Shown: positions 926 through 35,662 of the stretch, piece by piece
Position numbering within the stretch: the first letter of the stretch is position 1
How the letters are laid out: each line of letters opens with the position of its first letter
The notes under the pieces: generated by a model
The model's input: the letters and a program-made list of their open reading frames with translations, nothing else
What the model was told of the DNA's origin: nothing
The model's database searches: none
Translations under genes and position numbers: made by a program
Source of the DNA: a virus
Lineage: Duplodnaviria > Caudoviricetes
Length of the DNA: 64,000 nucleotides
IMG/VR virus record: IMGVR_UViG_3300020360_000085
Coordinates: 160,001 to 224,000 of that record
Strand: one strand, 5' to 3'

Positions 926-1924
926 ATGGCAAAGATCGATGTTACAGAATTAGACATATTCTATATTTCTTATGATGAACCCAACTGCGAAGAGCATTGG
1001 GCAGACTTACTAAACAAAGTACCTTGGGCAAAAAGGGTACACGGCGTAAAAGGATTTGACGCCGCACATAAAGAAGCCGCACAACAATCTGAAACTGACC
1101 GATTTATCACAGTAGATGGTGATAATATTGTTATGGATGATTTCTTTGAACAAGTACTAGATGTTCCAGACCAAGATCATGATGGAAACAATATTTCAGA
1201 AAGTATTTTTAGTTGGAATGCCAAAAATATTCTAAATGGTCTAGTATATGGTAATGGAGGCCTAAAATGCTGGCCTACCCAATATGTATTAGATATGAAA
1301 ACACACGAAGCGGCAGACGACGGTGAAGGTATGGAGTTTTGTTGGAAACTTAACTACATACAACTGAACGATACGTTTTCAGAAGTACATCAAACGGCAA
1401 GTCCTTTCCAAGCCTTTAGAGCAGGATTTAGAGAAGGTGTTAAAATGAGTTTGGATCAAGGAACCAGAATTCGTGCTGATGAATTTAAAGATAAAATATG
1501 GTGGCAAAATTACAACAGACTGCAAACATGGTGTAACATAGGTACAGATGTTGAAAATGGTTTGTGGGCAATTTATGGTGCAAGACTTGGATGTCAAATG
1601 ACTGTACTAAGTGATTGGGATACAAACAGTATAAGTGATTATGACTGGTTTAAAAAGTTTTTTAATAATGATATTTTGCCAAGATTTCCAGGAGATGAAG
1701 TTTGTAAATATTCAAAAGTAACATGGAATCCAGAAATGCTTTATATTGCTATACAAGATTTAGGAGTAACACTAAATGAAGGCATTAATGAAATGATGTT
1801 ATTTGATCCTAACAGAAAAATGTGTAAGTTTTTTAAAACAACTTATGTAAATCCAAGACGTTGGGGAGTAATGATAAGAGAAAAGCAAATTCAAGAATTA
1901 CTGGAAAAAGGATTAATACAGTAA
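926..1924 (+). CDS. GT-A-like glycosyltransferase-family phage protein
   Basis: DIFYISYDEP...HGVKGFDAAH...ITVDGDN (DxD)...YGNGGLK...QAFRAGFREGVKM; homologous to the last module of 19622-22675. Confidence 0.6.
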   Translation: MAKIDVTELDIFYISYDEPNCEEHWADLLNKVPWAKRVHGVKGFDAAHKEAAQQSETDRFITVDGDNIVMDDFFEQVLDVPDQDHDGNNISESIFSWNAKNILNGLVYGNGGLKCWPTQYVLDMKTHEAADDGEGMEFCWKLNYIQLNDTFSEVHQTASPFQAFRAGFREGVKMSLDQGTRIRADEFKDKIWWQNYNRLQTWCNIGTDVENGLWAIYGARLGCQMTVLSDWDTNSISDYDWFKKFFNNDILPRFPGDEVCKYSKVTWNPEMLYIAIQDLGVTLNEGINEMMLFDPNRKMCKFFKTTYVNPRRWGVMIREKQIQELLEKGLIQ

Positions 1925-2634
1925 TGAGTAAAATTTGGTTTTTTGGTGATAGTTTTGCCCATCCACCTTACATAAAAGATTTGTCTGAGGACAAAAATAA
2001 TTATTGGTGGGGTACAAAATTGTGTCAAAAGCATAATTTAACACCTAGAGTTATGTCAGAGCCTGGTAGTAGTTTAACATATACACACGAACAATTATTA
2101 AGATTTAAAAATCTTATAAATGAAGGAGATTTAGTTTTTATTTTTTACACTACTCCTTACAGAATGGATTTTGGTAAAAAATCTGTAAGTATAATTTCAA
2201 ATGGTATGACTCCTGCAGGAAAATTAATACCTAGTATAGACCCTGAACATGTAGTATCAGATGAAAGATTAAATAAAATTTTAAATATGTATATTGCATT
2301 AGGCTTAGATTTAGAAAGACATCTTAATCAACAATATGCTACAGTAAATTATATACAACATGTTTTAGTACCAGACATTTTACAAAAAAGAAAGCCTAAA
2401 AAAATATTAGAATTTTACTCTTTTAGGAGAACACAATTATGTCATAGTAATGTTGTTAATCCAGAAGAAAGTTTGCTTAAATTTTTACCCGAAGCGATGG
2501 AATGGATAAAAGATATTTGTGCAAAAGATAATGTTAATGTACAAGAAATTTTTTCTGATCCTTCACATTTTGGTAATGCTAAAGTAGGAGATTATAACGA
2601 AAAATATTTAGAATATATTGAAAGTTTATTATGA
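1924..2634 (+). CDS. SGNH/GDSL-like hypothetical protein
   Basis: True start is probably the ATG at 1924 (TAATG overlap). N-terminal WFFGDSF block-I-like motif and C-terminal DPSHF. Confidence 0.5.
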   Translation: MSKIWFFGDSFAHPPYIKDLSEDKNNYWWGTKLCQKHNLTPRVMSEPGSSLTYTHEQLLRFKNLINEGDLVFIFYTTPYRMDFGKKSVSIISNGMTPAGKLIPSIDPEHVVSDERLNKILNMYIALGLDLERHLNQQYATVNYIQHVLVPDILQKRKPKKILEFYSFRRTQLCHSNVVNPEESLLKFLPEAMEWIKDICAKDNVNVQEIFSDPSHFGNAKVGDYNEKYLEYIESLL

Positions 2635-4166
2635 GTAATTATGACCAGGCCGCAGATAAGGCCAAAAAACAGTTAGACAAAATAAGTCCAACTATGTGCT
2701 ATGCAAAATGGTCACAAGTTTCTATGCATTTACATAACGGCATGACTCATAGTTGTTATCATCCGCCTACACATAAAGTTGATTTAGAAGAATTAAAAGA
2801 AAATCCTACAGCACTTCATAATACAAAAGAGAAAAAAGAACAACGTAGACAAATGTTAGCAGGTGAAAGGCCAGAAGGGTGTAGTTACTGTTGGCGTATA
2901 GAAGATGTTGGTGGAAGAAGTGATCGTGTGTATCGTAGTGGCGAATATTGGGCTCAAAATGCTAGAGAAGAAATAGCAGAAGCAGGTGCAGATGGAAATA
3001 TAAATCCACGTTACGTTGAAGTAAACTTTAATCAAGCATGTAATTTAAAATGTAGTTATTGTAGTCCACATTTAAGTAACACTTGGGAGAAAGAAATAAA
3101 ACAATTTGGACCATACAATATAGTCCAAGGAGAACATAATAATTTAAATAGTTTAGGTAAAACTGGACTTATGCCATTAAAAATTTCACAAGCAGATAAT
3201 CCATATGTTACAGCCTTTTGGAAGTGGTGGCCTGATCTTTACAAAAATATAGAAGTTTTTCGTATGACAGGAGGAGAGCCACTAATGGATAGCAACACAT
3301 TTAAAGTATTAGACTATGTGTATAAAAATCCAAATGCCTGGCTTGAAATATCTGTTACATCAAACATGTGTCCACCTAAGCCAAAACTAATGGACATGTT
3401 TATAGAATCGCTACAAAGATTAGAAGAGATACAAATTTGGGAAGACCCAGAAAAGTTTAATCCAAACTCGGGGAACAACTGGTATGTAGCACCAGCATGT
3501 AAGAACTTTGCAACATTTGTATCATGTGATGGATATGGACCTCAAGCAGAGTATATGCGTAATGGTATGGACTTTAAAATGTTAGATAAAAATGTAAACA
3601 GAATCTTAGAGGATACAACTCATAGCACAATTACATTTATTAATACATTTAATGTACTAAGTTTAACAAGTTTGAAAGAATACTTACAATGGATTTTAGA
3701 ACTTAGAGATAGATATGCTAAGGATAGACAAGGAATAAAATATATTCCTATACCAGACAATGGCGGACATAAGCACCCAGATTATGAAGTAAGACCTAAA
3801 CAAAGAATATGGTTTGATATTCCATTGCTTAGAGCACCACTTTGGCAATGTATTCAAATAATGCCTGATTATTATCAGAGTTATTTGGAAGAAGCAATAG
3901 CATTTATGGAATTAAATAGAGCAGATGAAGTAAATATAGACTATAGAGGATTTAAAGATTTTGAAATAGATAAAGTAAGACGAAATTTAGAGTGGATGAA
4001 GGCCGGCTCTATTATGGATAAAGATGAATTACTTAAAGCAAGAGCAAATTTTTTTAAATTTTTTAGTCAGCATGATGAAAGAAGAAAAACAAACTTCTTA
4101 CAAGTTTTTCCAGAAATGGAAGATTGGTGGAATATTTGTAAAGAAGCAGAAGCATTAATAATATGA
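2631..4166 (+). CDS. radical SAM protein with N-terminal SPASM/twitch-like domain (#1)
   Basis: CNLKCSYC and MTGGEP; N-terminal C...SCYHPP...CSYCW. Confidence 0.9.
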   Translation: MSNYDQAADKAKKQLDKISPTMCYAKWSQVSMHLHNGMTHSCYHPPTHKVDLEELKENPTALHNTKEKKEQRRQMLAGERPEGCSYCWRIEDVGGRSDRVYRSGEYWAQNAREEIAEAGADGNINPRYVEVNFNQACNLKCSYCSPHLSNTWEKEIKQFGPYNIVQGEHNNLNSLGKTGLMPLKISQADNPYVTAFWKWWPDLYKNIEVFRMTGGEPLMDSNTFKVLDYVYKNPNAWLEISVTSNMCPPKPKLMDMFIESLQRLEEIQIWEDPEKFNPNSGNNWYVAPACKNFATFVSCDGYGPQAEYMRNGMDFKMLDKNVNRILEDTTHSTITFINTFNVLSLTSLKEYLQWILELRDRYAKDRQGIKYIPIPDNGGHKHPDYEVRPKQRIWFDIPLLRAPLWQCIQIMPDYYQSYLEEAIAFMELNRADEVNIDYRGFKDFEIDKVRRNLEWMKAGSIMDKDELLKARANFFKFFSQHDERRKTNFLQVFPEMEDWWNICKEAEALII

Positions 4167-4426
4167 AAGACAGAAATAAATTTTTAGAATTAGCAAAAAA
4201 AGGTATAGTTACAGTAGAATTTAGAAAAATAGATACACAAGAATTAAGAATTATGCCCTGTACGTTAAATAATAAATTAAGCAATGGAAAAGTTCCAGAC
4301 GGAATGAAACAAAATGCAAACAATGATGATTTTGCAGTATGGTCTCTAGATAAAAATGCATGGAGAAGTTTTAGAACTAATACTGTAGAAGATTGGTATG
4401 AAGGATATCCTAAAGAGGAAAATTAA
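4163..4426 (+). CDS. WYL_2/Sm-like SH3-fold small protein
   Basis: VTVEFRKIDT.ELRIMPCTL...AVWSLDKNAWRSFR pattern typical of T4-like phage DUF2693/WYL_2 proteins. Confidence 0.65.
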   Translation: MKDRNKFLELAKKGIVTVEFRKIDTQELRIMPCTLNNKLSNGKVPDGMKQNANNDDFAVWSLDKNAWRSFRTNTVEDWYEGYPKEEN

Positions 4427-6087
4427 TGGGAAGAAAGCAAGGAGAGTCACATAGAGAATATAAGAAAAGGATGATAGATCCTGTTTCTGAAAGTTTCTGT
4501 GGAGCAAAGTGGTACAATGCTACTATATGGTTAGGGCATGGCGGTACTACGAGTTGTCATCACCCTCCTGCTCACCAAATAGATTTAGAAGAAATTAAAA
4601 CAAATCCAAGTGCTATCCATAACAGTAGGCATAAAAAGAAAATGCGTCAGATGATGCAAGAGGGTACTAGACCCAAAGAGTGTGAGTACTGTTGGAAGAT
4701 TGAGGACATGGGTAAAGATGCAGACGGTAATGAGCCAGTAAGTGATAGAGTTTACAAAACGGTAATATACGAAGACGAGGATTTACATACTGCGGCAACT
4801 TTAGACCCGCAGTTTGACGTAAACTTAAAAACATTAGAGATTGCATTTAACAGAACATGCCAGTTAGCATGTAGTTACTGCAACCCTGCATTCTCCTCTA
4901 CATGGGTAAAAGACATTAGAGTAAATGGCGGATATCAAGGCATAAAAAGTGATGCTAGAGGACACTTTATTGATGATGCCCCCTACGCCGAACCATTTGA
5001 TCAAGATCAATTTAATCCATATGTTGATGCTTTTTGGAGATGGTGGCCTGAACTAAGTACAGAACTAGAAGAGATTAGAGTTACAGGTGGAGAACCACTT
5101 ATGACTCCAGACATTTATCAATTATTTGATTGGTTCGAAACAACAGACGAGCCTAATAAAGACAATATGAGATTTGCAATCAATAGTAACCTTATGGCAA
5201 AAGACAGCCTATTAGACAAAATGATTGCAGGCACACAAAATATTAATAGATTCCATTTATATACAAGTTGTGAAGCATTTGGTCCACAAGCAGAATACAT
5301 TAGAGATGGCTTGGATTGGGATAAGTGGACAACAGCATTTGAAAAGGTTTGCAGTGAAGCAAACATAGAAGGTTTACACATGATGATGACTATCAATGCA
5401 TTATGCCTTGATACCATTGTTGAATTTTTCGACTGGATGCTAGAGATGAAACGTAAATACGGTCATAATCGTCCTGGATTTACCTGTAACATTTTACGTT
5501 TCCCTAGTTTCCAGTCACCCTTAACATTACCAGACCATCTACGTGCAAAATATCATGATGAGGTTTACACATGGTTACAAAAAGTTAGAAGAAAGCAGGA
5601 AAAAGATTCTACTGGACAACTTTTAGTGCAACCTTGGGAGCAAGATCAAGTAAGCAGACTAATAGAATATTTAGACGTTGTAAAAACACCACATAGAAAT
5701 ACTGCTGATAGAGAACTACTTGAACATGATTTTAAATTGTTTTATGAGCAGTATGATGCAAGACGTGGGTTAAATTTTAGAGAAACTTTTCCAAGATTAA
5801 TAGAATTTTATGACAGTATTAAATTACAAGAATTCGATACTAATGAGCAGGATATACAAGCACCTAAAACAGCAGGAGTTACAGGCGGACTTTATGCAAA
5901 ACGTGTTGTAACAGAGGACGGCGAAGTAAAAGTTGTAGAAATGAAAATGCGTAATCGTAAAACAGGCGAAAGTGAAGACGACTATGATGATGAAAAATAT
6001 GCAGAAGATGAAAAAATTAATAAAGCAGGTAGCAGTATAGGTTGGGATACAGAAACAGATGGATTAGGCGGAGCAATTGATGATTAA
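4426..6087 (+). CDS. radical SAM protein with N-terminal SPASM/twitch-like domain (#2) and acidic C-terminal tail
   Basis: CQLACSYC and VTGGEP; N-terminal C...SCHHPP...CEYCW. Confidence 0.9.
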   Translation: MGRKQGESHREYKKRMIDPVSESFCGAKWYNATIWLGHGGTTSCHHPPAHQIDLEEIKTNPSAIHNSRHKKKMRQMMQEGTRPKECEYCWKIEDMGKDADGNEPVSDRVYKTVIYEDEDLHTAATLDPQFDVNLKTLEIAFNRTCQLACSYCNPAFSSTWVKDIRVNGGYQGIKSDARGHFIDDAPYAEPFDQDQFNPYVDAFWRWWPELSTELEEIRVTGGEPLMTPDIYQLFDWFETTDEPNKDNMRFAINSNLMAKDSLLDKMIAGTQNINRFHLYTSCEAFGPQAEYIRDGLDWDKWTTAFEKVCSEANIEGLHMMMTINALCLDTIVEFFDWMLEMKRKYGHNRPGFTCNILRFPSFQSPLTLPDHLRAKYHDEVYTWLQKVRRKQEKDSTGQLLVQPWEQDQVSRLIEYLDVVKTPHRNTADRELLEHDFKLFYEQYDARRGLNFRETFPRLIEFYDSIKLQEFDTNEQDIQAPKTAGVTGGLYAKRVVTEDGEVKVVEMKMRNRKTGESEDDYDDEKYAEDEKINKAGSSIGWDTETDGLGGAIDD

Positions 6088-6841
6088 ATTATTTGCTAAC
6101 ATTGGAGTAGGACACGAAAACGATTGGCAAACAATTAAAGGCAGAGTTGTTGCGGCCGCTCAGTGTAATGCTGATGCAATAGTAATTACAAAGTCAACGC
6201 CAGATATTATTATACCAAAGCATAAAAGATATGTAGCAATGGAAAGTAAATGGGGAGAACTGCCATATATAGAAGTAGCAAATAAAAGTGAATTAGACGA
6301 TTTAACTGTTAAAAAATTAAATGACTTAGTAGAGCAAATAGGCATACCAGTAATATGGTGCATTACAGATATACAGGCAGGAGATTGGGTATTAGAACAT
6401 ACAAATTGCAAAGATATTAAAATACATTTTGACTCTCAAAATGATTTAGATTTATTAGAGTTTTGTTATAATAATTTTGAAAAGGTTAGATATTGTGGTA
6501 ATGAAGAAAATATTAAAATATTATATAATATGTATCCTAGTAAATCAGTAAGGAGAGAACATTTATTTTTATATCATACTACAATTAAATTTCCTCCACA
6601 AGTAGAAGAATTAAAATTAAGTAGAATAGACAATTTAAAAAAATTATTTCCTGATGCAAATATAGGATTTGAAGGACGATGTGAATCAATATATCCTGAT
6701 TGTGCTGTTGCACTTAAAGATGTAAATTATATTGAAAAATATTTGGGGGACGAAGAAGAATTTAATCCTGCTGTTTTAAGTCATCAAAAATTTTATGACT
6801 TTTTTGTAAATATGAACCAACTAGAGATAGCAAATGGCTAA
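6080..6841 (+). CDS. degenerate NeuB/SpsE-like (sialic acid synthase fold) protein
   Basis: FANIGVGHEND...AAAQCNADAI resembles the NeuB AEIGxNHNGD...AAxAGADAVK motif; IGFEG...YIEKY resembles VGYSDH...IEKHF; no SAF domain. Confidence 0.55.
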   Translation: MIKLFANIGVGHENDWQTIKGRVVAAAQCNADAIVITKSTPDIIIPKHKRYVAMESKWGELPYIEVANKSELDDLTVKKLNDLVEQIGIPVIWCITDIQAGDWVLEHTNCKDIKIHFDSQNDLDLLEFCYNNFEKVRYCGNEENIKILYNMYPSKSVRREHLFLYHTTIKFPPQVEELKLSRIDNLKKLFPDANIGFEGRCESIYPDCAVALKDVNYIEKYLGDEEEFNPAVLSHQKFYDFFVNMNQLEIANG

Positions 6842-8237
6842 AGTTAAGCCTAAATGGGAACACGGACAAATGAGTCCAGATTCAGAAAACAAGGTGTTTT
6901 GTACAGCACCTTGGACCCATACCTATATTAGTCCACAAAGTGAAAGACGCATGTGCTGTGCTAGTAGAGAAGATCATATGATGCAAAGGCAGTATATAGA
7001 TGCAAGTAATGATAAAAGCACAGGCAAGTATAAAGAAGTAGGAACTATTGCAGATTATAAACCAGTAAGTTTGAAAGAACACTGGAATAGTCCTTACATG
7101 ATGGACATAAGAAAAAAACTTATGGCTGGCGAAGAGATTCCACAATGTGCAGTATGTAATGATAGTATTTTAAGTCAAAGTACATACAGACAATGGTTTA
7201 CTGGATTTTTATTTGAAAAATATATAGACAGGTGTTTTGAGGAGACAGATGAAAATGGATATACTAATATGGAACCAATTTCTTTTGATTACAGGGTCAG
7301 TAACCTGTGTAATTTTAAGTGTCGTATGTGTGGCGAACCTCTCTCGTCTGCTTGGGAAGGAGAGAAAAGAAAACATAATCTTTGGAGTCCGGAAAACCAA
7401 CCTTTTATGGTTCCCGAGAATAAAAAGATTATCCAGAAATTTCAGAAGGAAGTAGTTGAAGAAGAATTTTGGGACGCCATTTGTAGAGGCATTGTAGAAG
7501 AAATTTATTGGGTAGGTGGAGAACCACTAATGTATGACATTCATTGGCGTAGCATGGACAGATTAGCAAAAGATAATAATCTTAATAAAGTACATTTAAG
7601 ATATAATAGTAATTTAAGTCGTGTACGTTTTGGAGATCATTATTTGTACGACTGGCTACCACAAGCAAAAGATTGGACTATGTGTGCCAGTATAGATGGC
7701 ACGGGAGATATAGGCGAGTATATAAGAACTGGACTTAATTGGGAACAATGGGATAAAAACTTCAGAGAAGGTGTAGCATTACCAGGAGGTAATGATAAAA
7801 TGTTAATGGATTTAACATTAACAGGCCCAGGCATGTTTGATCTTAAAAACTTTTTTGATTATGCATTAGAACTAGATGTTAAGATAGAAACAAAACGCAT
7901 GTTCGCTTTCCATCCTGATATAGTAATGAGTGCTATGGCATGGCCTAGACATATACTTGACAGAATAATAGATGATGTGCTAGAATATATAAGGCCTAGG
8001 GCCACAGAAAAGCAACAAACATTAATAAGAGAATTAGAAGGCATGAAACAATCGCCTACTTTTCAAGAACAATGGCCAGAGGAGGCAGAAGATGCCTTTT
8101 TTAAAGGTAGAAATTGGCAAGATCAAATTGCAAATATTCGACCAGACGAAAAATTGCGTATAGAGGATATCTATAAGGAAGATAATGAATTATATGATTG
8201 GTGGATGAGAGTAGACCGCAAACACAATCAGCGATAA
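6834..8237 (+). CDS. radical SAM protein with N-terminal SPASM/twitch-like domain (#3)
   Basis: CNFKCRMC and WVGGEP; N-terminal C..PW...MCC...CAVC. Confidence 0.9.
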   Translation: MAKVKPKWEHGQMSPDSENKVFCTAPWTHTYISPQSERRMCCASREDHMMQRQYIDASNDKSTGKYKEVGTIADYKPVSLKEHWNSPYMMDIRKKLMAGEEIPQCAVCNDSILSQSTYRQWFTGFLFEKYIDRCFEETDENGYTNMEPISFDYRVSNLCNFKCRMCGEPLSSAWEGEKRKHNLWSPENQPFMVPENKKIIQKFQKEVVEEEFWDAICRGIVEEIYWVGGEPLMYDIHWRSMDRLAKDNNLNKVHLRYNSNLSRVRFGDHYLYDWLPQAKDWTMCASIDGTGDIGEYIRTGLNWEQWDKNFREGVALPGGNDKMLMDLTLTGPGMFDLKNFFDYALELDVKIETKRMFAFHPDIVMSAMAWPRHILDRIIDDVLEYIRPRATEKQQTLIRELEGMKQSPTFQEQWPEEAEDAFFKGRNWQDQIANIRPDEKLRIEDIYKEDNELYDWWMRVDRKHNQR

Positions 8238-8274
8238 TATACCACAAGCAACAAAACCCCCCAAAAAGACTCGA

Positions 8275-8336
8275 TAAATAGTGTAGTAATATGACTTTGT
8301 TATATTACACACATATTAACACAACAGGAGATAAAG
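8275..8336 (+). promoter_or_regulatory. putative late promoter TAAATA, 5' hairpin and AC-rich RBS leader
   Basis: TAAATA at 8275-8280; hairpin GTGT-A-GTAATATGAC/TTT/GTTATATTAC-ACAC at 8281-8312; acaacAGGAG before the ATG at 8337. Confidence 0.6.
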
Positions 8337-9671
8337 ATGGCCTCAGTCGGATTTATCGGTGTAGGTAAGTTAGGACAAGCCTGTGCCGAGATGGTCGCTG
8401 AAGTACATGATGTTGTTGGGTATGATGTTAATCCTGTAGAGCCTGAAAACTTTACAATGAGCGACACATTGGAAGGAGCAGTACTAGGACAAGATATTGT
8501 TTTTATTGCTGTACCTACACCACATGACCCACAGTATGATGGAAAAGCACCAACCAGCCATTTACCAAATAAGGACTTTGACTACGGTTTAGTTAAGCAA
8601 GTACTTTCAGAGGTAAATGCGGTTGCAACAAAAGACCAATTAGTAGTCCTTATATCAACAGTCTTGCCTGGTACAACCAGACGAGAATTCATTGATTTAA
8701 TTCCAAATGCCAGATTCGTTTACAACCCATACTTAATTGCTATGGGCACAGTTAAATGGGATATGGTAAATCCAGAAATGGTAATGATTGGAACAGAAGA
8801 TGGAAGTGAAACAGGTGATGCAAAACAACTTGTAGACTTTTACAAAACAATAATGCAAAACGATCCTAGATATATTATAGGTACTTGGGACGAAACAGAG
8901 TGTATAAAAGTTTTTTATAACACGTTTATTTCTGCCAAAGTATCTTTAGTAAATATGATACAGGACGTTGCAGAAAAGCAAGGCAACATAAACGCAGAAG
9001 TTGTTTGTGACGCTCTTGCAACATCAGACAGACGTATTATGGGTCCAGGTTACATGAAGCCGGGCATGGGCGATGGAGGTGCTTGCCACCCCCGAGATAA
9101 TATCGCACTTCGCTGGATGGCAGAAGAACTAGATTTAGGATACGACTTATTTGATGCTGTAATGTTAAGTAGAGAAGTACAAGCAGAAAATATGGCTAAA
9201 AAATTAAGCGAATATGCAGGTGGAGATTACCACCCTACAACAAAAACTATGGTAAATTCGTTACCTATTATAATTGTAGGTAAAGCATATAAGCCTTTAG
9301 TTGAATATGAAGCAGGTTCAAGTAGTATGTTAGTGGGACATTACATAGATAGTATGGGTCACGAACTGTATTACTACGATGAAAAAACAGGAGATATACC
9401 TCCACAACAAGTTTTAGATAAACCAGCAGTATATTTATTAGCACATAATCCTAGTATTACATACGGTGATCAGTTGGATACAGTACCTGGTTGGTATAAT
9501 GGCGAACACAATGTAACAGATTGTGATACAGCACTTATTTCAACAGGTAATGGTACAGAATTATATTTTGCACCAGACAGTATTGTTATTGATCCTTGGA
9601 GGAAAACACCACATATAATGGGCGTAAAAGTAGTACATTATGGAAACACTCGTAAAGAGTCTATGAGATAA
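8337..9671 (+). CDS. ugd: UDP-glucose/GDP-mannose dehydrogenase family protein
   Basis: GFIGVGKLG Rossmann motif, FIAVPTP, STVLPGT, YNPYL, KVFYNTF, catalytic GDGGACHPRD. Confidence 0.9.
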   Translation: MASVGFIGVGKLGQACAEMVAEVHDVVGYDVNPVEPENFTMSDTLEGAVLGQDIVFIAVPTPHDPQYDGKAPTSHLPNKDFDYGLVKQVLSEVNAVATKDQLVVLISTVLPGTTRREFIDLIPNARFVYNPYLIAMGTVKWDMVNPEMVMIGTEDGSETGDAKQLVDFYKTIMQNDPRYIIGTWDETECIKVFYNTFISAKVSLVNMIQDVAEKQGNINAEVVCDALATSDRRIMGPGYMKPGMGDGGACHPRDNIALRWMAEELDLGYDLFDAVMLSREVQAENMAKKLSEYAGGDYHPTTKTMVNSLPIIIVGKAYKPLVEYEAGSSSMLVGHYIDSMGHELYYYDEKTGDIPPQQVLDKPAVYLLAHNPSITYGDQLDTVPGWYNGEHNVTDCDTALISTGNGTELYFAPDSIVIDPWRKTPHIMGVKVVHYGNTRKESMR

Positions 9672-9672
9672 A

Positions 9673-15766: not shown

Positions 15767-17076
15767 TGTCTAAGGAATACAGTAAAACATTTTGTCCGTA
15801 TCCTTGGATACATGTAATGACACAACCAACTGGTACTATTAGTTGGTGTTGTGTTGCACGAGATAATTTTAAAGACGACCATGGTAAAATGGTAGATCTA
15901 AATCAAGGACATAAAATAGAGGATGTCTGGAATAGCAATCATATGCGTAAAATCCGCCAAGAAATGATCGAGGGAACAGTGGTAAAAGGTTGTGAGCATT
16001 GTTATGATTTAGAAGATATGGGTTTCCCTAGTTATAGAACAAACTATATTAGGGATTGGTTTGAATACAGTGGAAAAGGAGAAGAAATCCATGAACGTAT
16101 AGAACGAAGTATAAGCAATAACTTTAGAGTAGAAGAACCCCCAATGTACTTGGATTTTAGGTTAGGCAATATGTGTAACCTGAAGTGTAGAATGTGCCAA
16201 CCCCAAAATTCAAGTCAAATACAGAAGGAATATAAAAAAATAGAAACGGCTGACCCAAGTGCAGGAAAGTTCATTAAGGACAACTTCACTTGGGGACAGT
16301 TTGCAGATCATATAACACCATGGCAAGATGATCCTGAGTTTCTAAGACAAGTGGAAGAATGGTTACCAGGTGTAAACAAACTTTATTTTACTGGCGGAGA
16401 GCCAACTATTATAGAACGTGTTTATTGGATTATGGAAAAATGCGTAGAAATGGGCATAGCAAAAGATATAGAGTTAGTGTTTAACAGCAACATGACCAAC
16501 ATTCAGAAACGTTTTCTGGACTTGGTAGAGCAGTTTAAAAATGTATTAATGTGCATAAGTGTAGATGCTTATGGACATGAAAACGAATATATTAGAGGTG
16601 CAAGTCATTGGAGTAGAGTTGAGAAAAATTTAAGAACATATTGTGCTAGTGATGTTGTTGGAACTGTACTGTTTAGTCCTGTAATACAAATTTATAATGT
16701 ATTAACAATTACAAAACTACTGGACTTTTGTGAGGAATTAGAATTAGAATATGGAAGAGAAGTATTTGTAACATTTTTAATTTGTGACTACCCTACAAGT
16801 TTAGATTTTAGAAATTGTCCAGAGCAAGTACGTGAAGTTGCCGCAGGTAGACTAGAAATGTGGCTCAAGCAAAGTAAAATTTTAGCAAATAGACCTGAAA
16901 ATGTGCAATCCATAAATGCAACAATAAAGGCACTTAAAGAAAACCGTAAAGAAAATTGGCGACAGGAACTAATCACATTCCAAAAATATACAGAAATGTT
17001 AGATAAGCAAAGAAGTGAAAGTATGCAAGAAGCACTTCCAGAATTATATAATCTAATGTATAACAGTAACAGATAA
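15766..17076 (+). CDS. radical SAM protein with N-terminal SPASM/twitch-like domain (#8)
   Basis: CNLKCRMC and FTGGEP; N-terminal CPYPW...WCC...CEHCY. Confidence 0.9.
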   Translation: MSKEYSKTFCPYPWIHVMTQPTGTISWCCVARDNFKDDHGKMVDLNQGHKIEDVWNSNHMRKIRQEMIEGTVVKGCEHCYDLEDMGFPSYRTNYIRDWFEYSGKGEEIHERIERSISNNFRVEEPPMYLDFRLGNMCNLKCRMCQPQNSSQIQKEYKKIETADPSAGKFIKDNFTWGQFADHITPWQDDPEFLRQVEEWLPGVNKLYFTGGEPTIIERVYWIMEKCVEMGIAKDIELVFNSNMTNIQKRFLDLVEQFKNVLMCISVDAYGHENEYIRGASHWSRVEKNLRTYCASDVVGTVLFSPVIQIYNVLTITKLLDFCEELELEYGREVFVTFLICDYPTSLDFRNCPEQVREVAAGRLEMWLKQSKILANRPENVQSINATIKALKENRKENWRQELITFQKYTEMLDKQRSESMQEALPELYNLMYNSNR

Positions 17077-17112
17077 TTACCAAATAAGTGCTGTAAAATA
17101 AAGCATCTTAAG

Positions 17113-17118
17113 TAAATA
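17113..17118 (+). promoter_or_regulatory. putative late promoter (TAAATA)
   Basis: agTAAATAttgttATG, 5 nt before the start at 17124, implying a nearly leaderless transcript. Confidence 0.4.
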
Positions 17119-17123
17119 TTGTT

Positions 17124-17717
17124 ATGTCAGAGCCTATTGTAATAGACAATTTTTTACCTAAAAATGTTTTAGAAAAGATTGATCATTTTTACAAAACTGC
17201 ATCATTAAAATTATCTATGGGAGAAATAGATGATACACCTACTTTTTTACAATGTTCTATAGGTGTTGAGGAACTTCTAGGTGTATTTGAGTTAGATACT
17301 TATATAGAAAAACATTTAAATAATACATATAAAAATTGTACATTTAAAAATTTAGAAAGATTTTATATCAATATACTTACTAATGCAGAAAAAAATAAAA
17401 TGGTAGGGCATAGGGACATAAATGAGAGCGATTTAACAGAAGATGATTTTTATTTAATTAGTATAATTTTTTTAAATCCAGAAGGAAATAAAGATACAGG
17501 TATTTACATTAACGAAAATTATTATGAGGACGTTTATAACAGAATGATTTTATTTGATGGTACAAATTGGCATAAAGCGGTTGCTCCACAGGACGACTAT
17601 GTAAGAATTACATTTTATGCAAATTTTTCAAATCGTATATCTAAAAATAATGTATTTAGACAATTAAAAAATGCAGATGCATGTTCAAAATATTTTAAAA
17701 ATGTTTATAGGAAATAA
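17124..17717 (+). CDS. 2OG-Fe(II) oxygenase superfamily protein
   Basis: HxD (GHRD), distal His in NRMILFDGTNWHKA, and Arg in RITF. Confidence 0.7.
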   Translation: MSEPIVIDNFLPKNVLEKIDHFYKTASLKLSMGEIDDTPTFLQCSIGVEELLGVFELDTYIEKHLNNTYKNCTFKNLERFYINILTNAEKNKMVGHRDINESDLTEDDFYLISIIFLNPEGNKDTGIYINENYYEDVYNRMILFDGTNWHKAVAPQDDYVRITFYANFSNRISKNNVFRQLKNADACSKYFKNVYRK

Positions 17718-17718
17718 G

Positions 17719-17904
17719 ATGGAAGAGAGAAATCAGAAACATAAACAACAAGATTTAACAGAACTTAATAGTGATGGTAATCGAGAAAGAGGTAGAGAAG
17801 GTGAAGACTTATCTAATGAAATACAACTTACAAAAGAAGAAGAAGAGCAGTTGAAAAAGAAATTAGAAAAATTAAGACAGCAAGATCCTTTTATATATAG
17901 ATGA
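17719..17904 (+). CDS. small charged hypothetical protein
   Basis: ATG at 17719 directly after the upstream stop; Glu/Lys-rich; ends DPFIYR with an ATGA overlap into the next gene. Confidence 0.6.
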   Translation: MEERNQKHKQQDLTELNSDGNRERGREGEDLSNEIQLTKEEEEQLKKKLEKLRQQDPFIYR

Positions 17905-19415
17905 GAATTTTAGGATTAAGTTTTGGTTTTCATGATGCAGGTGCTTGTATGCTTGACTTTAAAAACATAGAGTTTGCAAGTCATTCAGAAAGATATACCA
18001 AAGTAAAAAACGATCCATGGATAAATCATGACCTAATAGATGCGGCAATAGAAAATGGAAAGCCTGATATAATAGTTTTACACGAAAAAGCATGGGCAAA
18101 AAGAATTCGTAATTTACTAAATGCAAATTTTAGAGCCCTAAGAGAACCAACTCAAAGACAATGGATTAAAAAATTTTATCCCCAACTGAAAGATATACCT
18201 ATAAAAGATTATTGGCATCATGAAACACATGCGGCCGCAGGTGTATTAAGTAGTAATTTTGATGAGTGTGCTGTAATGGTAATAGATGCTATTGGAGAAT
18301 TTAATACAGCAACAATTTGGCAATGGAAAGATGGTAATTTAAAAAAATTACATAGTGTAAATTTTCCAAGCAGTTTAGGTTTATTTTATAGTGCTGTAAC
18401 AAGTCATGTAGGTCTTAAACCTATGGAAGACGAATATATTTTAATGGGAATGGCCGCATATGGTAAAACAGAAAACTGGAAACCATTATCAAGAAAAATG
18501 GGTAAGAAATTTTTTAAATTTAAACATCCATGGATAAGTCATAGGCAAACAATAGACGGAATTTATAATTTACAAAGAGGACTACCTAAAAACAGTTTTG
18601 TAGGTGTTGATGAATTTGATATGGCCGCGGCCGCACAAAATCAAGTTGAACAAAGGGTAAAAGCATTTGCTCAACATGCCAAAGAAATTACGGGTAGTAA
18701 TAATTTAGTTTACATGGGAGGAGTAGCACTTAATTGTGTAGCCAATAGTAAACTATTTGATATTTTTAAAAATATTTTTATAATGCCTAACCCAGGAGAT
18801 TGTGGGAGCAGTTTAGGTGCGGCCGCACTTGAACTTTACAATCAAACTGGAGAAAAAATAAATTGGAAAACGCCTTACACAGGATACAATATACCTGGAA
18901 AATATCCAATTAAAAAGGCATTAGCAAGTTTAAAGGCGGGGGAACTATTTGGTATAGCAAATGGCAAAGCGGAATTTGGGCCACGTGCATTAGGCAATAG
19001 AAGTTTATGTGCAGATCCTAGAGGACCAGACGTTAAGGATAAAATGAATGTAATTAAAAAACGTCAAAAGTTTAGACCATTCGCACCAATGATATTGGAA
19101 GAACATGTGCATGATTATTTTGAAATGCCAGGTGGCATTACTCATGCACCGTATATGCAATTTGTTGCAAAGTGCAAAAATCCAGAAGAGTTTCCTGCTA
19201 TAATACATGAAGACGGTACAAGCCGTGTTCAAACAGTTCGCAAGGAAGAACATCCTGATTTACACGATCTGCTATCAAAATTTTACAAACAGACAGGTTG
19301 CCCTATGTTACTTAATACAAGTTTAAACATTAAAGGACAGCCAATTGTAAATGATGAAAAAGACGCAGAAGCCTTTGCTCAACATTATGGAGTAAAGGTA
19401 CATGTCAGAGATTGA
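17901..19415 (+). CDS. carbamoyltransferase (NodU/CmcH/TobZ family)
   Basis: ILGLSFGFHDAGA, HHETHAAA, SLGLFYS, EYILMGMAAYG, GGVALNCVAN, PGDCGSSLGAA, EFGPRALGNRS, FRPFAP, LLNTSLN. Confidence 0.93.
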   Translation: MRILGLSFGFHDAGACMLDFKNIEFASHSERYTKVKNDPWINHDLIDAAIENGKPDIIVLHEKAWAKRIRNLLNANFRALREPTQRQWIKKFYPQLKDIPIKDYWHHETHAAAGVLSSNFDECAVMVIDAIGEFNTATIWQWKDGNLKKLHSVNFPSSLGLFYSAVTSHVGLKPMEDEYILMGMAAYGKTENWKPLSRKMGKKFFKFKHPWISHRQTIDGIYNLQRGLPKNSFVGVDEFDMAAAAQNQVEQRVKAFAQHAKEITGSNNLVYMGGVALNCVANSKLFDIFKNIFIMPNPGDCGSSLGAAALELYNQTGEKINWKTPYTGYNIPGKYPIKKALASLKAGELFGIANGKAEFGPRALGNRSLCADPRGPDVKDKMNVIKKRQKFRPFAPMILEEHVHDYFEMPGGITHAPYMQFVAKCKNPEEFPAIIHEDGTSRVQTVRKEEHPDLHDLLSKFYKQTGCPMLLNTSLNIKGQPIVNDEKDAEAFAQHYGVKVHVRD

Positions 19416-19629
19416 TTGGCATAAAATACACAGCAAATTGCAAGGCACATGTACAACATGTGGAGGAGAGTTGCCTAACCATAAGGGTGTATGCCCTGTT
19501 GAAGGCCAGCAACTACTAGCAAGATTAGAACAGATTGACAATAGTGTAAAACATGTAGGCGATATTGCTGAAGACTTGATTAAAAGTTATAAAAAAATGA
19601 AAAGGTCATTTAAAAATAAAAATGTTTGA
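19402..19629 (+). CDS. small hypothetical protein with CxxC...HxxxC putative Zn site
   Basis: CTTCGGELPNHKGVCP followed by a coiled-coil-like segment; overlaps both neighbours. Confidence 0.55.
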   Translation: MSEIDWHKIHSKLQGTCTTCGGELPNHKGVCPVEGQQLLARLEQIDNSVKHVGDIAEDLIKSYKKMKRSFKNKNV

Positions 19630-22600
19630 TATATTTTACATAGGAGATAATCCCAAATTAAAAGAACTGTTGCCGTTTGCAAAACAGATAAATGATGTTG
19701 GCGAAATACAATCAAAAACAAGAATGTGTTGGTTAATAGAACCAAATATAGAAATAGTAGATATAGATATTTTTAATTTTAGGCCTGATATGTATGACAT
19801 GAAATATGAACATGTTTGGAAATGGGATTCAAATAATTATGGTGGTATAAGATTACTGCCTAAAACACAAAATGATGGTGTAAAAGAAATCAATAAAATT
19901 GTTTGTAAAAAAAGTTTTGAAATTTTAAATACTAAAACTCCTGCAAAGTATTTTGATAATAATCCTTATGCTACACATGTATGGTGCATAGATAAAGATT
20001 ATAAATTACCTGAAGATATAAATTGGGCACCTGATAATTTTGAACCAGATTTTATACATAGTTTTCATTTAAGAGGTCAATTAGAACATAAGTACCCTGC
20101 AGAAGAAGGCGGCATCAAATTATATCCTAAAGATTGGAAGACAGCAGATACAAAATATCATGGATTTTTAGATGCACAAATAATTTTTCCAGTATTTTAT
20201 GTAAAAGATGTAGAAGATTATTCACAACGCAATATCTTTTTAGATGATTATGTTTGGCTTGTAGATTCTAAATATAAAATAAATGCTAATTCGTTAGATT
20301 GGGTTCCTAATCCTTTTGAGGATAAAATGATACACAGTTTTAGAATGCCTTACCAACTTACAGAAAAATATCCAGACGAAATGGGCGGTATTAGATTAGT
20401 ACCTAAAGATTGGAAGACAGCAGAAACTAAAATACACAAAGATTGTCCTATTGAAGATGAAAATTATGATGTATTTTACACAAACAAAAAGTTTAATGCA
20501 GAAACATTTGAGTATTATGCTAAACGATCTGAAACAGATTGGTTTTGGGTAGTAGATAGAGACTATGATTTTAATGGAAAACTATTATATGTTCCTGCAA
20601 GGCATGAACGTGATTATATACATGTTTTTAAATGGGGACTAGAACATAGATATAGGCCTGAAATAACAGAACTTTGGGACGACAGAGTTTCAGGTATATT
20701 TCTAGTTCATAAAGAGTTTGACTTCACAAAAAGAAAACTGCATACAGATATAGTGCCTGTAAAATACGATATTTTCTTTACTAATGACATAAATGATTAT
20801 GTTACCTATAGTAGAAAAAGCAGAACAGATGCTTTTTGGTTAGTTGATGAAGAACATGTATTAACTGAAAATATAGATTATGTTCCAGAATATAGTGAGC
20901 AAAAGTATATTAATATTTTTAAAATACCTAAGCAATTAGAACACAAATACCCACGAAGTGTTACAAATGTAAGTGATAATCGTTGTGGTGGAATAAAACT
21001 TGTACCTAAAGATTTTAATACAGAAGATGTAAAATATCAAGGTTTACTAACAGATATAGAAATTATAGAATATGAAAAATTTGATAATGAAAAAGAAGGT
21101 AGGTCAAAGAGTAAAAACGATTGGTTTTGGGTTATAGACCCTGATGTAGAAGTTCTTGAGGACTTTAACTTTGACTTTATACCAGATACATGGGACGAAG
21201 GCAAAACTCATGTATGGCAAAAACTAAATCCAGTAACTGGCAGACAGTATGATTATGGTGGTGTTAGTTTATTTCCTAAGGTTGCACAAACAAAAGGAAG
21301 ACCCAAATACATAAGAGAACCAGCATGTACACAAAAAGAATATCCTGTATATAATCTTACTGCTTCTGACTATAAAAACGGCTTACAGAGCATTTACGAG
21401 CGTCTGACAGGGCAAACAAATACAGAAATGTATTGGGTAGTAGATGCTTTTACACGGCTGTCTGAGGACTTTGACTTTAGTTACTATCCTACACAATGGG
21501 ATAAAAATAATGTACATGTATTTGCAAATGAAGATGGAGAATACAGAAATGTACGTTTAGTGCCTAAAAAAACATTTTTAGAAAAACAATTTACAGACAA
21601 GGAAATAGCAAACAATAGTTTTGATAATTTAAAAGAAATGAATACAATAGCAAGTTTAAAACCTAAATGGCCTGTAGTTAAGTTAGATAATTTATCTGCT
21701 AAAGATTTTTACGATAAATTAAAAGATATTAAAGAGCCATTTGTTTGGACCATAGATCCAGATGTAAGAGAAAATTTTAAAGTTTTAAATGAAGGGTATA
21801 TGCCTGAAATTACAAATGTAGATAAAATACATTCTTGGCAAAAACAAAATTCATTAAACAATAAAGTGCATGGATATGGCGGCCTACGACTATGGCCCAC
21901 TAATATAGATTTTAAATCTATAAAATCAGAGCAACTGAAACTCAATAGATTTAAAAATTTACAATATGTAAAAGAAATAGGTTCTATAAGTAAACCATTT
22001 GACGTGGTTTACATAAGTTATCATGAACCATTTGCAGACAAAAATTTTACTAAATTACAGGATCATATTAGAAGCACAGATTCAACACTAAAACTTATAT
22101 GGATAAGAGATGTAAAAGGTATTTTTGAAGCACATAAACAAGGTGCTAATAGAGTACAAAGTAAAATGTTTTGGGTAGTAGATGCAGATGCAGTAATAGA
22201 CCAAGATTTTAAATTTGATTATATACCAGATGTATATGATGAAGAAGTTGTCCATGTTTGGGCGAGTAAAAATCCAATAAATGAACTTGAATATGGATAT
22301 GGAGGCGTAAAACTATTTCCAACAGAAATGGTTCAAAACGCAAACACTTGGGGGATTGATTTCACAACTGGTCTTAGTAATAGATTTAAGTCTATGCCAC
22401 AGGTTAGTTGTGTTACCAAATTTAATACAGATGCATTTAGCACTTGGAGGAGTGCATTTCGTGAATGTGTAAAATTAACACTTAACGAAGATGAGGAAAG
22501 TAAACAGCGATTACAAGCCTGGTTAAACACTAGGGGGAAAGGAAATTATACTAGGTCAGCAGTAAAAGGAGCATTAGAGGGGAACCAATTTGCAGAAGCA

Positions 22601-22675
22601 AATAAAAATAATGTAACTGAATTAAATAAAATAAATGATTATGAGTGGTTAAATGGACAATATAATAAGTCTTAA
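19622..22675 (+). CDS. multi-module GT-A-like protein (nine tandem repeats)
   Basis: Nine W-x-x-D/E...H-x-W/F...GG-x-x-L-x-P modules; the last module (VVYISYHEP, VKGIFEAHK, WVVDADA, YGYGGVKLF, WRSAFRECVKL) matches 926-1924. Confidence 0.7.
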   Translation: MFDIFYIGDNPKLKELLPFAKQINDVGEIQSKTRMCWLIEPNIEIVDIDIFNFRPDMYDMKYEHVWKWDSNNYGGIRLLPKTQNDGVKEINKIVCKKSFEILNTKTPAKYFDNNPYATHVWCIDKDYKLPEDINWAPDNFEPDFIHSFHLRGQLEHKYPAEEGGIKLYPKDWKTADTKYHGFLDAQIIFPVFYVKDVEDYSQRNIFLDDYVWLVDSKYKINANSLDWVPNPFEDKMIHSFRMPYQLTEKYPDEMGGIRLVPKDWKTAETKIHKDCPIEDENYDVFYTNKKFNAETFEYYAKRSETDWFWVVDRDYDFNGKLLYVPARHERDYIHVFKWGLEHRYRPEITELWDDRVSGIFLVHKEFDFTKRKLHTDIVPVKYDIFFTNDINDYVTYSRKSRTDAFWLVDEEHVLTENIDYVPEYSEQKYINIFKIPKQLEHKYPRSVTNVSDNRCGGIKLVPKDFNTEDVKYQGLLTDIEIIEYEKFDNEKEGRSKSKNDWFWVIDPDVEVLEDFNFDFIPDTWDEGKTHVWQKLNPVTGRQYDYGGVSLFPKVAQTKGRPKYIREPACTQKEYPVYNLTASDYKNGLQSIYERLTGQTNTEMYWVVDAFTRLSEDFDFSYYPTQWDKNNVHVFANEDGEYRNVRLVPKKTFLEKQFTDKEIANNSFDNLKEMNTIASLKPKWPVVKLDNLSAKDFYDKLKDIKEPFVWTIDPDVRENFKVLNEGYMPEITNVDKIHSWQKQNSLNNKVHGYGGLRLWPTNIDFKSIKSEQLKLNRFKNLQYVKEIGSISKPFDVVYISYHEPFADKNFTKLQDHIRSTDSTLKLIWIRDVKGIFEAHKQGANRVQSKMFWVVDADAVIDQDFKFDYIPDVYDEEVVHVWASKNPINELEYGYGGVKLFPTEMVQNANTWGIDFTTGLSNRFKSMPQVSCVTKFNTDAFSTWRSAFRECVKLTLNEDEESKQRLQAWLNTRGKGNYTRSAVKGALEGNQFAEANKNNVTELNKINDYEWLNGQYNKS

Positions 22676-23339
22676 AAGTTGGAAGGAAGTTACAGAATAT
22701 ATAGATAATGGATTCTGGAAACCTACACCTAGTTACTTTGAACACATTGTACAACATAATAGTTATTATCCAAATCATGCTTTTAGCAAAGGACAATTAG
22801 CAAGTAAGAGTTGGCTACTAGAAAAATTACACAAAATTAATTGGAGACATCAACCTAATAGCGATGTAGTGGTAATTTTAGGCAGTTGGATAGGTGCAAT
22901 AGTAGAACCTTTGCATAAAACTTTTGATATTGAAAGAATTTACGGTATAGATTTAGATGCTACAGCAATAGAAAAATCAGAAAAGTTAAATCAAAAGTTT
23001 GTTCAAGACAATTGGAAATATAAAGGTGTTGTACATGACGTTGACTTAATAGAGTGTGATAATATGCAATTTCAAACAGGTGGAGAACTTATAAATTGTA
23101 AACCAAACTGGATTATTAATACAAGTTGTGAACACATGAGCACACTTTGGTATGATACAGTTGATAGCAATCAACTAATTGTAATGCAAACAAATAATTC
23201 TAAAGAATTTGACGGTCATATTAATCCATGTTATACTCTCGATGAAATGCAGGAAAAATATCCTTTAAAAGAAACACTATTTATTGGTGCTTTAGAAACT
23301 CCTGCTTACACAAGATTTATGCAAATAGGCTACAAATAA
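22653..23339 (+). CDS. class I SAM-dependent methyltransferase-like protein
   Basis: VVILGSWIG (motif I-like), YGIDLD (motif II), INTSCEHM. Confidence 0.6.
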   Translation: MDNIISLKSWKEVTEYIDNGFWKPTPSYFEHIVQHNSYYPNHAFSKGQLASKSWLLEKLHKINWRHQPNSDVVVILGSWIGAIVEPLHKTFDIERIYGIDLDATAIEKSEKLNQKFVQDNWKYKGVVHDVDLIECDNMQFQTGGELINCKPNWIINTSCEHMSTLWYDTVDSNQLIVMQTNNSKEFDGHINPCYTLDEMQEKYPLKETLFIGALETPAYTRFMQIGYK

Positions 23340-23908
23340 TGAAAACAAAAGTTATAAATTTTTATGGCGGTCCTGGATCAGGAAAAAGTACTAAAGCCGC
23401 AGGACTATATTACAAAATGAATATGGCTGGATTTAGTGTAGAATTAAATAATGAGTTTGCAAAAGAATGCGTATGGGAAGACAATGTTCCTATGTTAAAG
23501 GACCAATTGTTTATGTTAGCACATCAGCACAGAAAAATTTTAAGATTAGTTGATAAAGTAGAATATGTAATTACAGATTCTCCTGTAATGTTAAGTGGAA
23601 TATATAGAGAGTTGTATAATGGTCCTTTATATAGTGATCTAATAGATAAGTTAGCAAGAGAATGCTATGACAAATATGAAAACATAAATTTTATGTTAGA
23701 CAGACCTAAAAAAATATTTAATCAAAAGGGGAGAGCACAAAACGAACAGGGTAGTATTAATATAGATAATGCAATAATAGAAATGTTTAAAACCGAAAAA
23801 CTTCCGTTTTTTTGGTTAAAAGGTCTAGAAGAAGAGGCTGTAGATATTGCTTTTAAATATATTGCTAAAAAAGGTTCTAAAGAACAATGGGAAAAATATT
23901 TATTTTAA
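23339..23908 (+). CDS. P-loop kinase/ATPase (NadR/AAA_28-like)
   Basis: Walker A GGPGSGKS, NEFAKE, YVITDSP. Confidence 0.8.
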   Translation: MKTKVINFYGGPGSGKSTKAAGLYYKMNMAGFSVELNNEFAKECVWEDNVPMLKDQLFMLAHQHRKILRLVDKVEYVITDSPVMLSGIYRELYNGPLYSDLIDKLARECYDKYENINFMLDRPKKIFNQKGRAQNEQGSINIDNAIIEMFKTEKLPFFWLKGLEEEAVDIAFKYIAKKGSKEQWEKYLF

Positions 23909-35126: not shown

Positions 35127-35138
35127 TAAAAAGGTCTC

Positions 35139-35627: not shown

Positions 35628-35633
35628 AATTAC

Positions 35634-35661: not shown

Positions 35662-35662
35662 T

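Follow-up and report, generated by a model that had tools for sequence, protein, structure and literature searches.

What would a tailed phage make with eight radical S-adenosylmethionine (SAM) enzymes that are encoded among sugar-transferring, carbamoylating and methylating enzymes? The question is raised by a gene cluster at positions 926-23908 of a 64,000-nucleotide stretch of DNA, called the window here, which covers bases 160001-224000 of a 250.5-kb IMG/VR virus contig (IMGVR_UViG_3300020360_000085; contig ~66% complete). The source is a large, uncultured marine T4-like jumbo phage. The cluster was tentatively read as a late, fully soluble pathway of glycan assembly and tailoring, located in the host-recognition region and most likely decorating parts of the virion, and we hold this reading at slightly less than even confidence. 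It is carried by the families of the enzymes, a late-type promoter motif, synteny in related contigs, an ancient set of radical SAM paralogues and the solubility of the encoded proteins. Positions are those of the window and features lie on the plus strand, unless stated otherwise.

Organisation of the cluster

The cluster contains 22 open reading frames (ORFs), all on the plus strand. Neighbouring ORFs overlap or abut at 18 of the 21 junctions, which bears out the co-oriented, overlapping layout described in an earlier note on this DNA, and only three intergenic gaps (23, 99 and 47 nt) are present. A transmembrane segment was found in none of the 22 proteins (0/22), and the cluster encodes no lipid-carrier (initiating) transferase, flippase, polymerase or exporter/ABC transporter. 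Pfam searches at loose thresholds gave nothing usable for genes g1, g3, g12, g16, g17 and g21.

Radical SAM enzymes

Eight genes encode N-terminal-twitch radical SAM proteins: g4 (2631..4166, of a long subfamily), g6 (4426..6087, 51% identical to a protein of Ralstonia phage RsoM2USA), g8 (6834..8237), g10 (9673..11004), g11 (11004..12251), g13 (13341..14576), g14 (14573..15766) and g15 (15766..17076). The NCBIfam model NF033640 (N_Twi_rSAM, twitch domain-containing radical SAM protein) covers each of the eight along its whole length with a score of 300-400 bits, where the curated cut-off is 170, and each contains CxxxCxxC; the earlier count of eight paralogues was therefore correct. Pfam matches to SPASM were located at residues ~7-110, N-terminal to the CxxxCxxC motif (~120-160), and the twitch cysteines C20, C39, C80 and C83 are invariant. 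CxxxCxxC and GGEP are likewise invariant in all eight paralogues and in 30 homologues, and pairwise identity among the eight is only 20-32%. In the model of g13 (predicted local distance difference test, pLDDT, 92) the core is a partial TIM barrel, with matches to anSME, SkfB and MoaA.

The family is very large, with 8,104 clusters (50% identity) at E <= 1e-30 and 15,537 at 1e-10. Many of the top library matches (P0187-P0202 and others) are 790-1,466 residues long and consist of two fused N-twitch radical SAM modules, a hint that the paralogues perhaps cooperate physically. A ninth, shorter copy (212 bits, profile positions 1-335) is encoded on the minus strand outside the window and far from the cluster, at G000:C1:236671-237582.

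Sugar-building and tailoring enzymes

The gene g9 (8337..9671) encodes an NDP-sugar 6-dehydrogenase of Ugd type, with ~80% identity even in a distant phage clade. PF03721 and PF00984 were above their cut-offs, and GGACHPRD aligns to GGSCFPKD of 4a7p, which contains the catalytic Cys; the C-terminal Pfam domain was undetected, and TIGR03026 scored 143 against a cut-off of 190. The carbamoyltransferase g18 (17901..19415) belongs to the NodU/CmcH/TobZ/NovN family of O-carbamoyltransferases, with a Kae1-like N-terminal domain (PF02543, 122 bits), a YrdC-like C-terminal domain (PF16861, 181 bits), HHETH (HxxxH) at residue 106 and matches to NovN, GdmN and TobZ at E 1e-45 to 1e-57. NodU proper can be ruled out, because the NodU equivalog scored 134 against a cut-off of 1000.

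Two genes encode GT-A glycosyltransferases. For g2 (926..1924), the model had a pLDDT of 78 and every significant fold match was a GT-A enzyme, among them the capsid-glycosylating A64R of PBCV-1 and peptide glycosyltransferases such as SunS; the DxD motif (D64 and D66) is invariant, the Pfam GT2 score was under its cut-off, and a search of the PDB sequences with the g2 profile was empty. The 1017-residue g20 (19622..22675) ends in a complete GT-A module of 230 residues, paralogous to g2, which is preceded by eight partial, glycosyltransferase-like copies of the central segment. Its homologues are 997-1,953 residues long and vary strongly in length and sequence between close relatives.

These results uphold the Ugd (as an NDP-sugar dehydrogenase with the catalytic-Cys motif), NodU/CmcH and GT-A-like calls of the earlier note, the last by the fold and DxD motif of g2 and the one full module of g20. 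Its remaining enzyme calls fared less well. The SGNH-like call for g3 (1924..2634, SGNH/GDSL-like and DUF6071-like) is kept as probable: from the true start at 1924 the protein has an N-terminal GDS block, and atlas scores, which derive from language-model features, were 0.95-0.96 for DUF6071/Lipase_GDSL. A 2-oxoglutarate (2OG)-Fe(II) oxygenase is likely for g16 (17124..17717), which has the HxD...H...R motif and a match to phrog_274, but whose PDB sequence search was empty; the gene is absent from the fetched flanks of relatives. For g21 (22653..23339), an atlas methyltransferase score of 0.95 makes a class I SAM methyltransferase likely. The GT10-like call for g12 (12229..13365), a virus-only orphan family, is a lead only: the atlas GT10 score was just 0.80, with a TEK-type motif, but 0/63 homologues had a Pfam domain and the g12 profile had no match in the PDB. 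The invariant E...TEK..K...P pattern of the family is presumably akin to the motif of GT10 enzymes.

The NeuB-like protein g7 (6077..6841, start codon uncertain) does pass the Pfam NeuB cut-off, at 51 bits, but this TIM barrel is only 254 residues long, ends without a SAF domain and lacks both metal His residues: aligned to SpsE, the SDH and EKH metal motifs read EGR and EKY, and equivalog cut-offs were missed widely. Finally, g22 (23339..23908) is indeed a P-loop NTPase/kinase (AAA_28, with Tmk- or NadR-like relatives), but it probably does not belong to the pathway and is not counted in it. Its relatives are common in jumbo phages away from such clusters, and it probably serves general nucleotide or NAD metabolism. 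A role as a 5-hydroxymethyluracil DNA kinase was ruled out on the same grounds.

Two further small proteins are encoded, namely g5 (4163..4426), a WYL_2 protein of the Sm-like SH3 barrel type, and g19 (19402..19629), a zinc-ribbon-like CxxC...H...C protein that lies between g18 and g20 in all close relatives.

Micro-peptide g17 and the carbamoyltransferase

The gene g17 (17719..17904) encodes a 61-residue micro-protein whose stop codon overlaps the start of g18. A hypervariable N-terminus is followed by 25 conserved C-terminal residues, which form a helix and end in DPFIYR; the consensus of the type is (L/I)(T/S)xEEEExLKKKLExLRKxDPF(I/V)Y(R/K), with the core DPFIY[KR]. An ORF of this type lies directly upstream of the carbamoyltransferase gene in nearly all phage-type loci, the exceptions being RsoM2USA (L002) and L046, in which one gene stands between the two. 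Short versions of 33-36 residues were found in other contigs. In RsoM2USA the peptide is an unannotated 36-residue ORF ending RKQDPFIYK (L002:19026-19136, between RsoM2USA_201 and RsoM2USA_200), and the mini-cluster there has, besides this ORF and the carbamoyltransferase gene, a single N-twitch radical SAM gene and two unknown genes.

Complex prediction suggests that g17 binds g18 (ipSAE 0.80, against 0.00 for the best control; partner pLDDT 61; run agreement >=66%); 51 of 78 solved complexes came up to the mark used, as did 2 of 108 mismatched pairs. In the predicted complex the conserved helix and tail of g17 would contact the N-terminal domain of g18 near HHETH and Asp129, and g17 could be either an accessory subunit or an acceptor. 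Bacterial DUF5989 (SxtK-like) proteins that adjoin carbamoyltransferases end in APFIYSLF. Homology between g17 and DUF5989 is not claimed: a profile comparison aligned the five-residue PFIY motif only, at 14% probability. The micro-peptide is absent from bacterial radical SAM arrays.

Promoters and timing

The earlier note had placed TAAATA promoters at three sites. Two of them are copies of the octamer GATAAATA, located at 882..889, 44 nt ahead of g2, and at 8273..8280, 64 nt ahead of g9. Genome-wide, 38 of the 50 copies of GATAAATA lie <=100 nt upstream of a same-strand gene start, against a background of 4.4%, and control octamers with one mismatch gave 5-11% in the same position test. Genes behind these copies include those of the tail sheath, the portal, fibre-like proteins and virion proteins. 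The copy ahead of g9 is kept in relatives: in most fetched relatives, the distant clade among them, GATAAATA occurs 42-59 nt ahead of the dehydrogenase gene in a spacer that otherwise diverges, and in one sub-clade (four loci) CATAAATA takes its place. The cluster thus has what marks a T4-type late transcription unit, a NATAAATA-type motif upstream that is common to structural genes. The distribution of GATAAATA fits the late promoters of marine T4-like phages, which are of NATAAATA type.

The third site, at 17113, was rejected. It reads GTAAATA, 5 nt from the ATG, and its motif class is near background; g16-g22 are therefore probably read through from upstream. Sigma70-like sites (TTGACA-N16-18-TAnnnT) are found ahead of early genes on the minus strand, such as that of the DNA polymerase (site at 46087), and none occurs in the intergenic gaps of the cluster, in agreement with the earlier claim that TTGACA-N16 early promoters are missing ahead of it; the sole site on the cluster strand lies within g8. 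Late-type control is thereby supported, from sequence motifs, for two of the three proposed units, which share the motif of the structural genes and lie close to fibre genes, but not for the third.

Conservation in phages and bacteria

The gene set was found to be syntenic in 29 IMG/VR contigs, by the comparison across relatives that had been proposed as a check, and the cluster is genuine, beyond chance co-occurrence. Identity to g13 in these contigs is mostly 80-88% and ~48% in one clade. The core order is dehydrogenase, 5-7 radical SAM genes, SGNH/DUF6071-like gene, micro-peptide, carbamoyltransferase, small protein, giant glycosyltransferase and methyltransferase, with the SGNH/DUF6071-like gene located elsewhere in some genomes. 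The distant clade has in addition a clear 2OG oxygenase, a methyltransferase and a fatty-acid-desaturase-like protein.

In a maximum-likelihood tree of 147 family members, each radical SAM paralogue of the window formed its own orthogroup (SH-aLRT 98-100), and for g8, g10, g11, g13, g14 and g15 both phage clades contributed partners. For most of the orthogroups, a sister came from the array of eight genes in a single metagenome-assembled genome (MAG) of the Bacteriovoracaceae. It follows that the paralogues are an ancient set that travelled together, which argues for a multi-step pathway or a multi-enzyme machine over recent redundancy.

The family was located at 78 genome loci, often in tandem arrays of up to eight copies, in Bdellovibrionota, Bacteroidota, Elusimicrobiota, Acidobacteriota, Myxococcota and others. 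In Bacteroidota it is surrounded by GT2, a UbiA-GT4-GDSL fusion, a Ugd-like dehydrogenase and an NAD epimerase, by several oxygenases of PhyH and WelO5 type and a methyltransferase, by a carbamoyltransferase and DUF5989, and by an SxtJ-like membrane protein and an ABC transporter. This is the enzyme palette of the phage cluster, and it points to a tailored, exported glycoconjugate in these bacteria. Seven loci filed as bacterial MAGs (L045-L049, L054 and L055) contain the phage-type cluster, including the DPFIY peptide and a g2-like glycosyltransferase; they are probably phage contigs that were binned into Gammaproteobacteria, Legionellales, Verrucomicrobia, Rickettsiales and Haliscomenobacter MAGs.

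Proposed pathway

From the enzymes and their setting we infer the following chemistry, step order and acceptor. The dehydrogenase g9 would oxidise an NDP-hexose to the hexuronate, and GalE, encoded elsewhere in the window, could be a second source of sugar nucleotides. Sugars would be transferred by the GT-A enzymes g2 and g20, and perhaps by g12. Each of the eight radical SAM enzymes might then perform a different C-H activation on the sugar units, for which epimerisation, oxidation or dehydration, decarboxylation and C-C or C-methyl formation are candidate reactions. To finish the product, g18 with g17 could O-carbamoylate it, g21 could add O-methyl groups, g16 could hydroxylate it and g3 could handle esters. 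The likeliest acceptors would be virion proteins of the adjoining baseplate/tail-fibre module. A role in tailoring a glycan or glycoconjugate fits both the enzymes and the bacterial neighbours, and a cytoplasmic acceptor is favoured over the host envelope by the lack of transmembrane segments, initiating transferase, flippase and exporter.

Several points weigh against this reading. This phage has no known glycosylated virion protein, and the contig is only ~66% complete. Sequence and fold searches with g13 returned generic SPASM/twitch relatives only (anSME, SkfB, CteB, BlsE, viperin and MoaA; TM ~0.4), so no substrate can be deduced for it; a search of the literature found no paper on the function of NF033640, a family without a characterised member or known substrate. 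The GT10, methyltransferase, SGNH and oxygenase calls are weakly based, g7 looks catalytically dead from its motifs, and late timing is read from promoter motifs. The Bacteriovoracaceae arrays, moreover, have no adjoining sugar genes. That of UBA6144 (L124), with eight radical SAM genes and small unknown ORFs interspersed, lies between ribosomal protein/Obg genes and lgt, and none of the non-radical-SAM genes of the Bacteriovoracaceae/Halobacteriovoraceae arrays resembles any gene of the cluster. Sugars, then, need not be the substrates of the radical SAM enzymes.

Alternative readings

The earlier note favoured modification of a virion protein or a host-surface glycan over modification of DNA, and the two halves of this claim fared differently. 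DNA is indeed disfavoured. Glycans that are built on phage DNA by glycosyltransferases are known (bioRxiv 10.1101/2023.12.21.572611), and the cluster has a methyltransferase, a 2OG oxygenase and glycosyltransferases that could act after replication. Against such a hypermodification stand the absence of ThyA (PF00303), ThyX (PF02511) and a hydroxymethylase-like gene from the 250-kb contig (~66% complete), the nature of g21, which is not a recognisable DNA C5-methyltransferase, and that of g16, which is small and missing from relatives; the promoters are of late type, a separate FolE/QueE-like set lies in the early region, and the cited work does not mention carbamoyl or radical SAM functions. 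We regard modified DNA as highly improbable. The host-surface option was weakened in turn. Modification of lipopolysaccharide (LPS) or capsule, which would block superinfection or the trapping of progeny on debris, agrees with the proposal of O-chain modification for a hypervariable region in which LPS-type genes, UDP-glucose dehydrogenase and radical SAM cassettes were described (PMC7029224), with bacterial counterparts that resemble exported glycoconjugate loci and with a g20 that is highly variable in length and sequence between close relatives. It is nevertheless quite unlikely, since all 22 proteins are soluble, a lipid-carrier transferase, flippase, polymerase and ABC transporter are lacking, and late-type promoters common to structural genes fit poorly with an exclusion function that acts early.

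A product anchored on a peptide was considered unlikely, if less so. Here g17 would be the scaffold or precursor, modified by the radical SAM enzymes and then glycosylated, carbamoylated and methylated, in loose likeness to mycofactocin, for which a SPASM radical SAM enzyme, a GT2 enzyme and a methyltransferase act on a peptide that ends in Tyr; glycocins are comparable. The place of the g17-type ORF upstream of the carbamoyltransferase in nearly all phage-type loci, its hypervariable N-terminus and a predicted complex that puts the C-terminal tail beside the HxxxH/Asp region of g18 would suit this, as would the frequent action of SPASM/twitch enzymes on peptides and the nearness in fold of SunS-type peptide glycosyltransferases to g2. 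Translational coupling to a single enzyme and binding through the conserved helix, however, look more like an accessory subunit, as do the bacterial loci in which the carbamoyltransferase is paired with a small DUF5989 (SxtK-like) protein ending APFIYSLF. The predicted partner is the carbamoyltransferase and not a radical SAM enzyme, the peptide is missing from the bacterial radical SAM arrays, and no RRE domain, protease or exporter was found, with no search aimed at RRE domains. A soluble small molecule, such as a tailored sugar nucleotide or a nucleoside-type metabolite directed at host defences or competitors, would follow the model of the blasticidin and polyoxin pathways, which rely on UDP-glucuronate together with a carbamoyltransferase and a twitch radical SAM enzyme. 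BlsE (cytosylglucuronate decarboxylase) and viperins give weak matches to a profile of the eight paralogues, but these are no better than its matches to other SPASM/twitch enzymes; Ugd would supply glucuronate, and carbamoyltransferases, methyltransferases and oxygenases are typical of natural-product tailoring (NovN, GdmN and TobZ), yet several GT-A modules and a giant repeat glycosyltransferase suggest a polymer or a macromolecular acceptor. With the adjacency to fibre genes and the late control also left unexplained, we judge this product very unlikely.

Returning to the decorated virion, a bolder form of the proposal is that the eight co-inherited enzymes act one after another by radical chemistry on sugars, or on a conjugate of sugar and peptide that starts from the DPFIY micro-protein, and so create a new class of hypermodified glycan on the virions of abundant ocean phages; chemistry of this kind is not known to have been described. 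The same set would give rise to an unrecognised glycoconjugate in Bacteroidota and in Bdellovibrio-like predators. We consider this form doubtful.

Relation to known systems

A T4-like genome with 12 radical SAM genes was described from Tara data (Nishimura et al., 2017; PMC5332604), and a host-recognition cluster with radical SAM cassettes, UDP-glucose dehydrogenase and glycosyltransferases was described in pelagimyophages (Zaragoza-Solas et al., 2020; PMC7029224). The host-recognition cluster of pelagimyophages and cyanomyophages occurs in the same kind of phage and at the same position beside the tail fibres. Both papers mention the radical SAM genes in passing only, as iron-sulphur metabolism or O-chain modification. 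The earlier statement that no characterised phage pathway has this gene set therefore holds in that the set is uncharacterised in both papers, but such genes had already been noted there. New with respect to those papers are the family assignment, the orthogroup structure, the peptide and the promoters. NF033640 has no characterised member, and here eight distinct subfamilies occur together in one phage.

In PBCV-1 (A64R) and other chloroviruses, the mimivirus fibril and mycobacteriophage glycosylation, viral GT-A and sugar-nucleotide enzymes are expressed with structural genes; for the present system virion glycosylation is a proposal. To our knowledge, none of the chlorovirus, mimivirus and mycobacteriophage systems has a radical SAM enzyme, a carbamoyltransferase or a repeat-bearing giant glycosyltransferase. 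Closer in content are Bacteroidota loci, such as that of a Fluviicola MAG (L128), which share with the phage N_Twi radical SAM copies, the carbamoyltransferase and its PFIY partner, glycosyltransferases, GDSL, 2OG-type oxygenases and a methyltransferase. They differ from the soluble phage set in being membrane-linked (UbiA, SxtJ-like, transmembrane DUF5989 and ABC transporter) and are likewise uncharacterised. TobZ, NovN and GdmN have both domains and the metal motif in common with g18. In the SxtI/SxtJ/SxtK system we take the small SxtK (DUF5989) to accompany the carbamoyltransferase, in parallel to g17-g18. Unlike SxtK/DUF5989, g17 has no transmembrane helix.

No reaction is known for any member of the very large NF033640 family, and its chemistry is the main interest of the locus. 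If a radical-tailored virion glycan is indeed made, a new layer would be added to host recognition and defence evasion in ocean phages, virus-encoded glycosylation would extend from giant viruses and mycobacteriophages to T4-like phages, and new enzyme chemistry would be opened. The question can be tested at the bench, since RsoM2USA, which has been cultured, carries a mini-version with radical SAM gene, micro-peptide and carbamoyltransferase, and Vibrio phage K566/K567 is another cultured carrier.

Genome and surroundings

The contig encodes a T4-type family B DNA polymerase (phrog_262) and structural proteins of T4-like kind: tail sheath, portal, the hub and a wedge of the baseplate, and a virion protein of 6,236 residues. 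The GC content of the cluster is ~30-37%. Near-identical DNA is present in marine metagenomes of several independent studies, and close homologues of the cluster proteins are nearly all marine, some of them from Tara, including a g13 homologue of 84% identity on a 183-kb Tara contig. A search for near-identical DNA in the phage collection gave zero matches. Among RNA runs, two contain 5-13% of the sampled words.

Genes for the baseplate hub, a baseplate wedge, the 6,236-residue virion protein and a fibre-like protein lie upstream on the strand of the cluster, and ~6-8 kb separates the cluster from the baseplate, giant-fibre and tail-fibre genes. The 6,236-residue protein is of virion/baseplate type (G000:C1:133638-152348, plus strand), with the baseplate wedge and hub genes before it and the cluster ~8 kb further downstream. 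The opposite strand is used downstream of the cluster, for an FG-GAP protein, replication genes and a FolE/QueE-like/phosphoribosyltransferase group with GalE and a glycosyltransferase. The 811-residue FG-GAP repeat protein (23900-26335, minus strand) converges on the cluster with a 9-nt overlap with g22, which leaves no room for a terminator between the two. The early-region group (33053-37599, minus strand) stands behind sigma70-like promoters, separate from the cluster, and encodes a divergent QueE-like radical SAM protein, GTP cyclohydrolase I (FolE), a phosphoribosyltransferase, GalE, which scores above its equivalog cut-off, and a glycosyltransferase. A 7-deazapurine route together with sugar-nucleotide supply is possible for this group.

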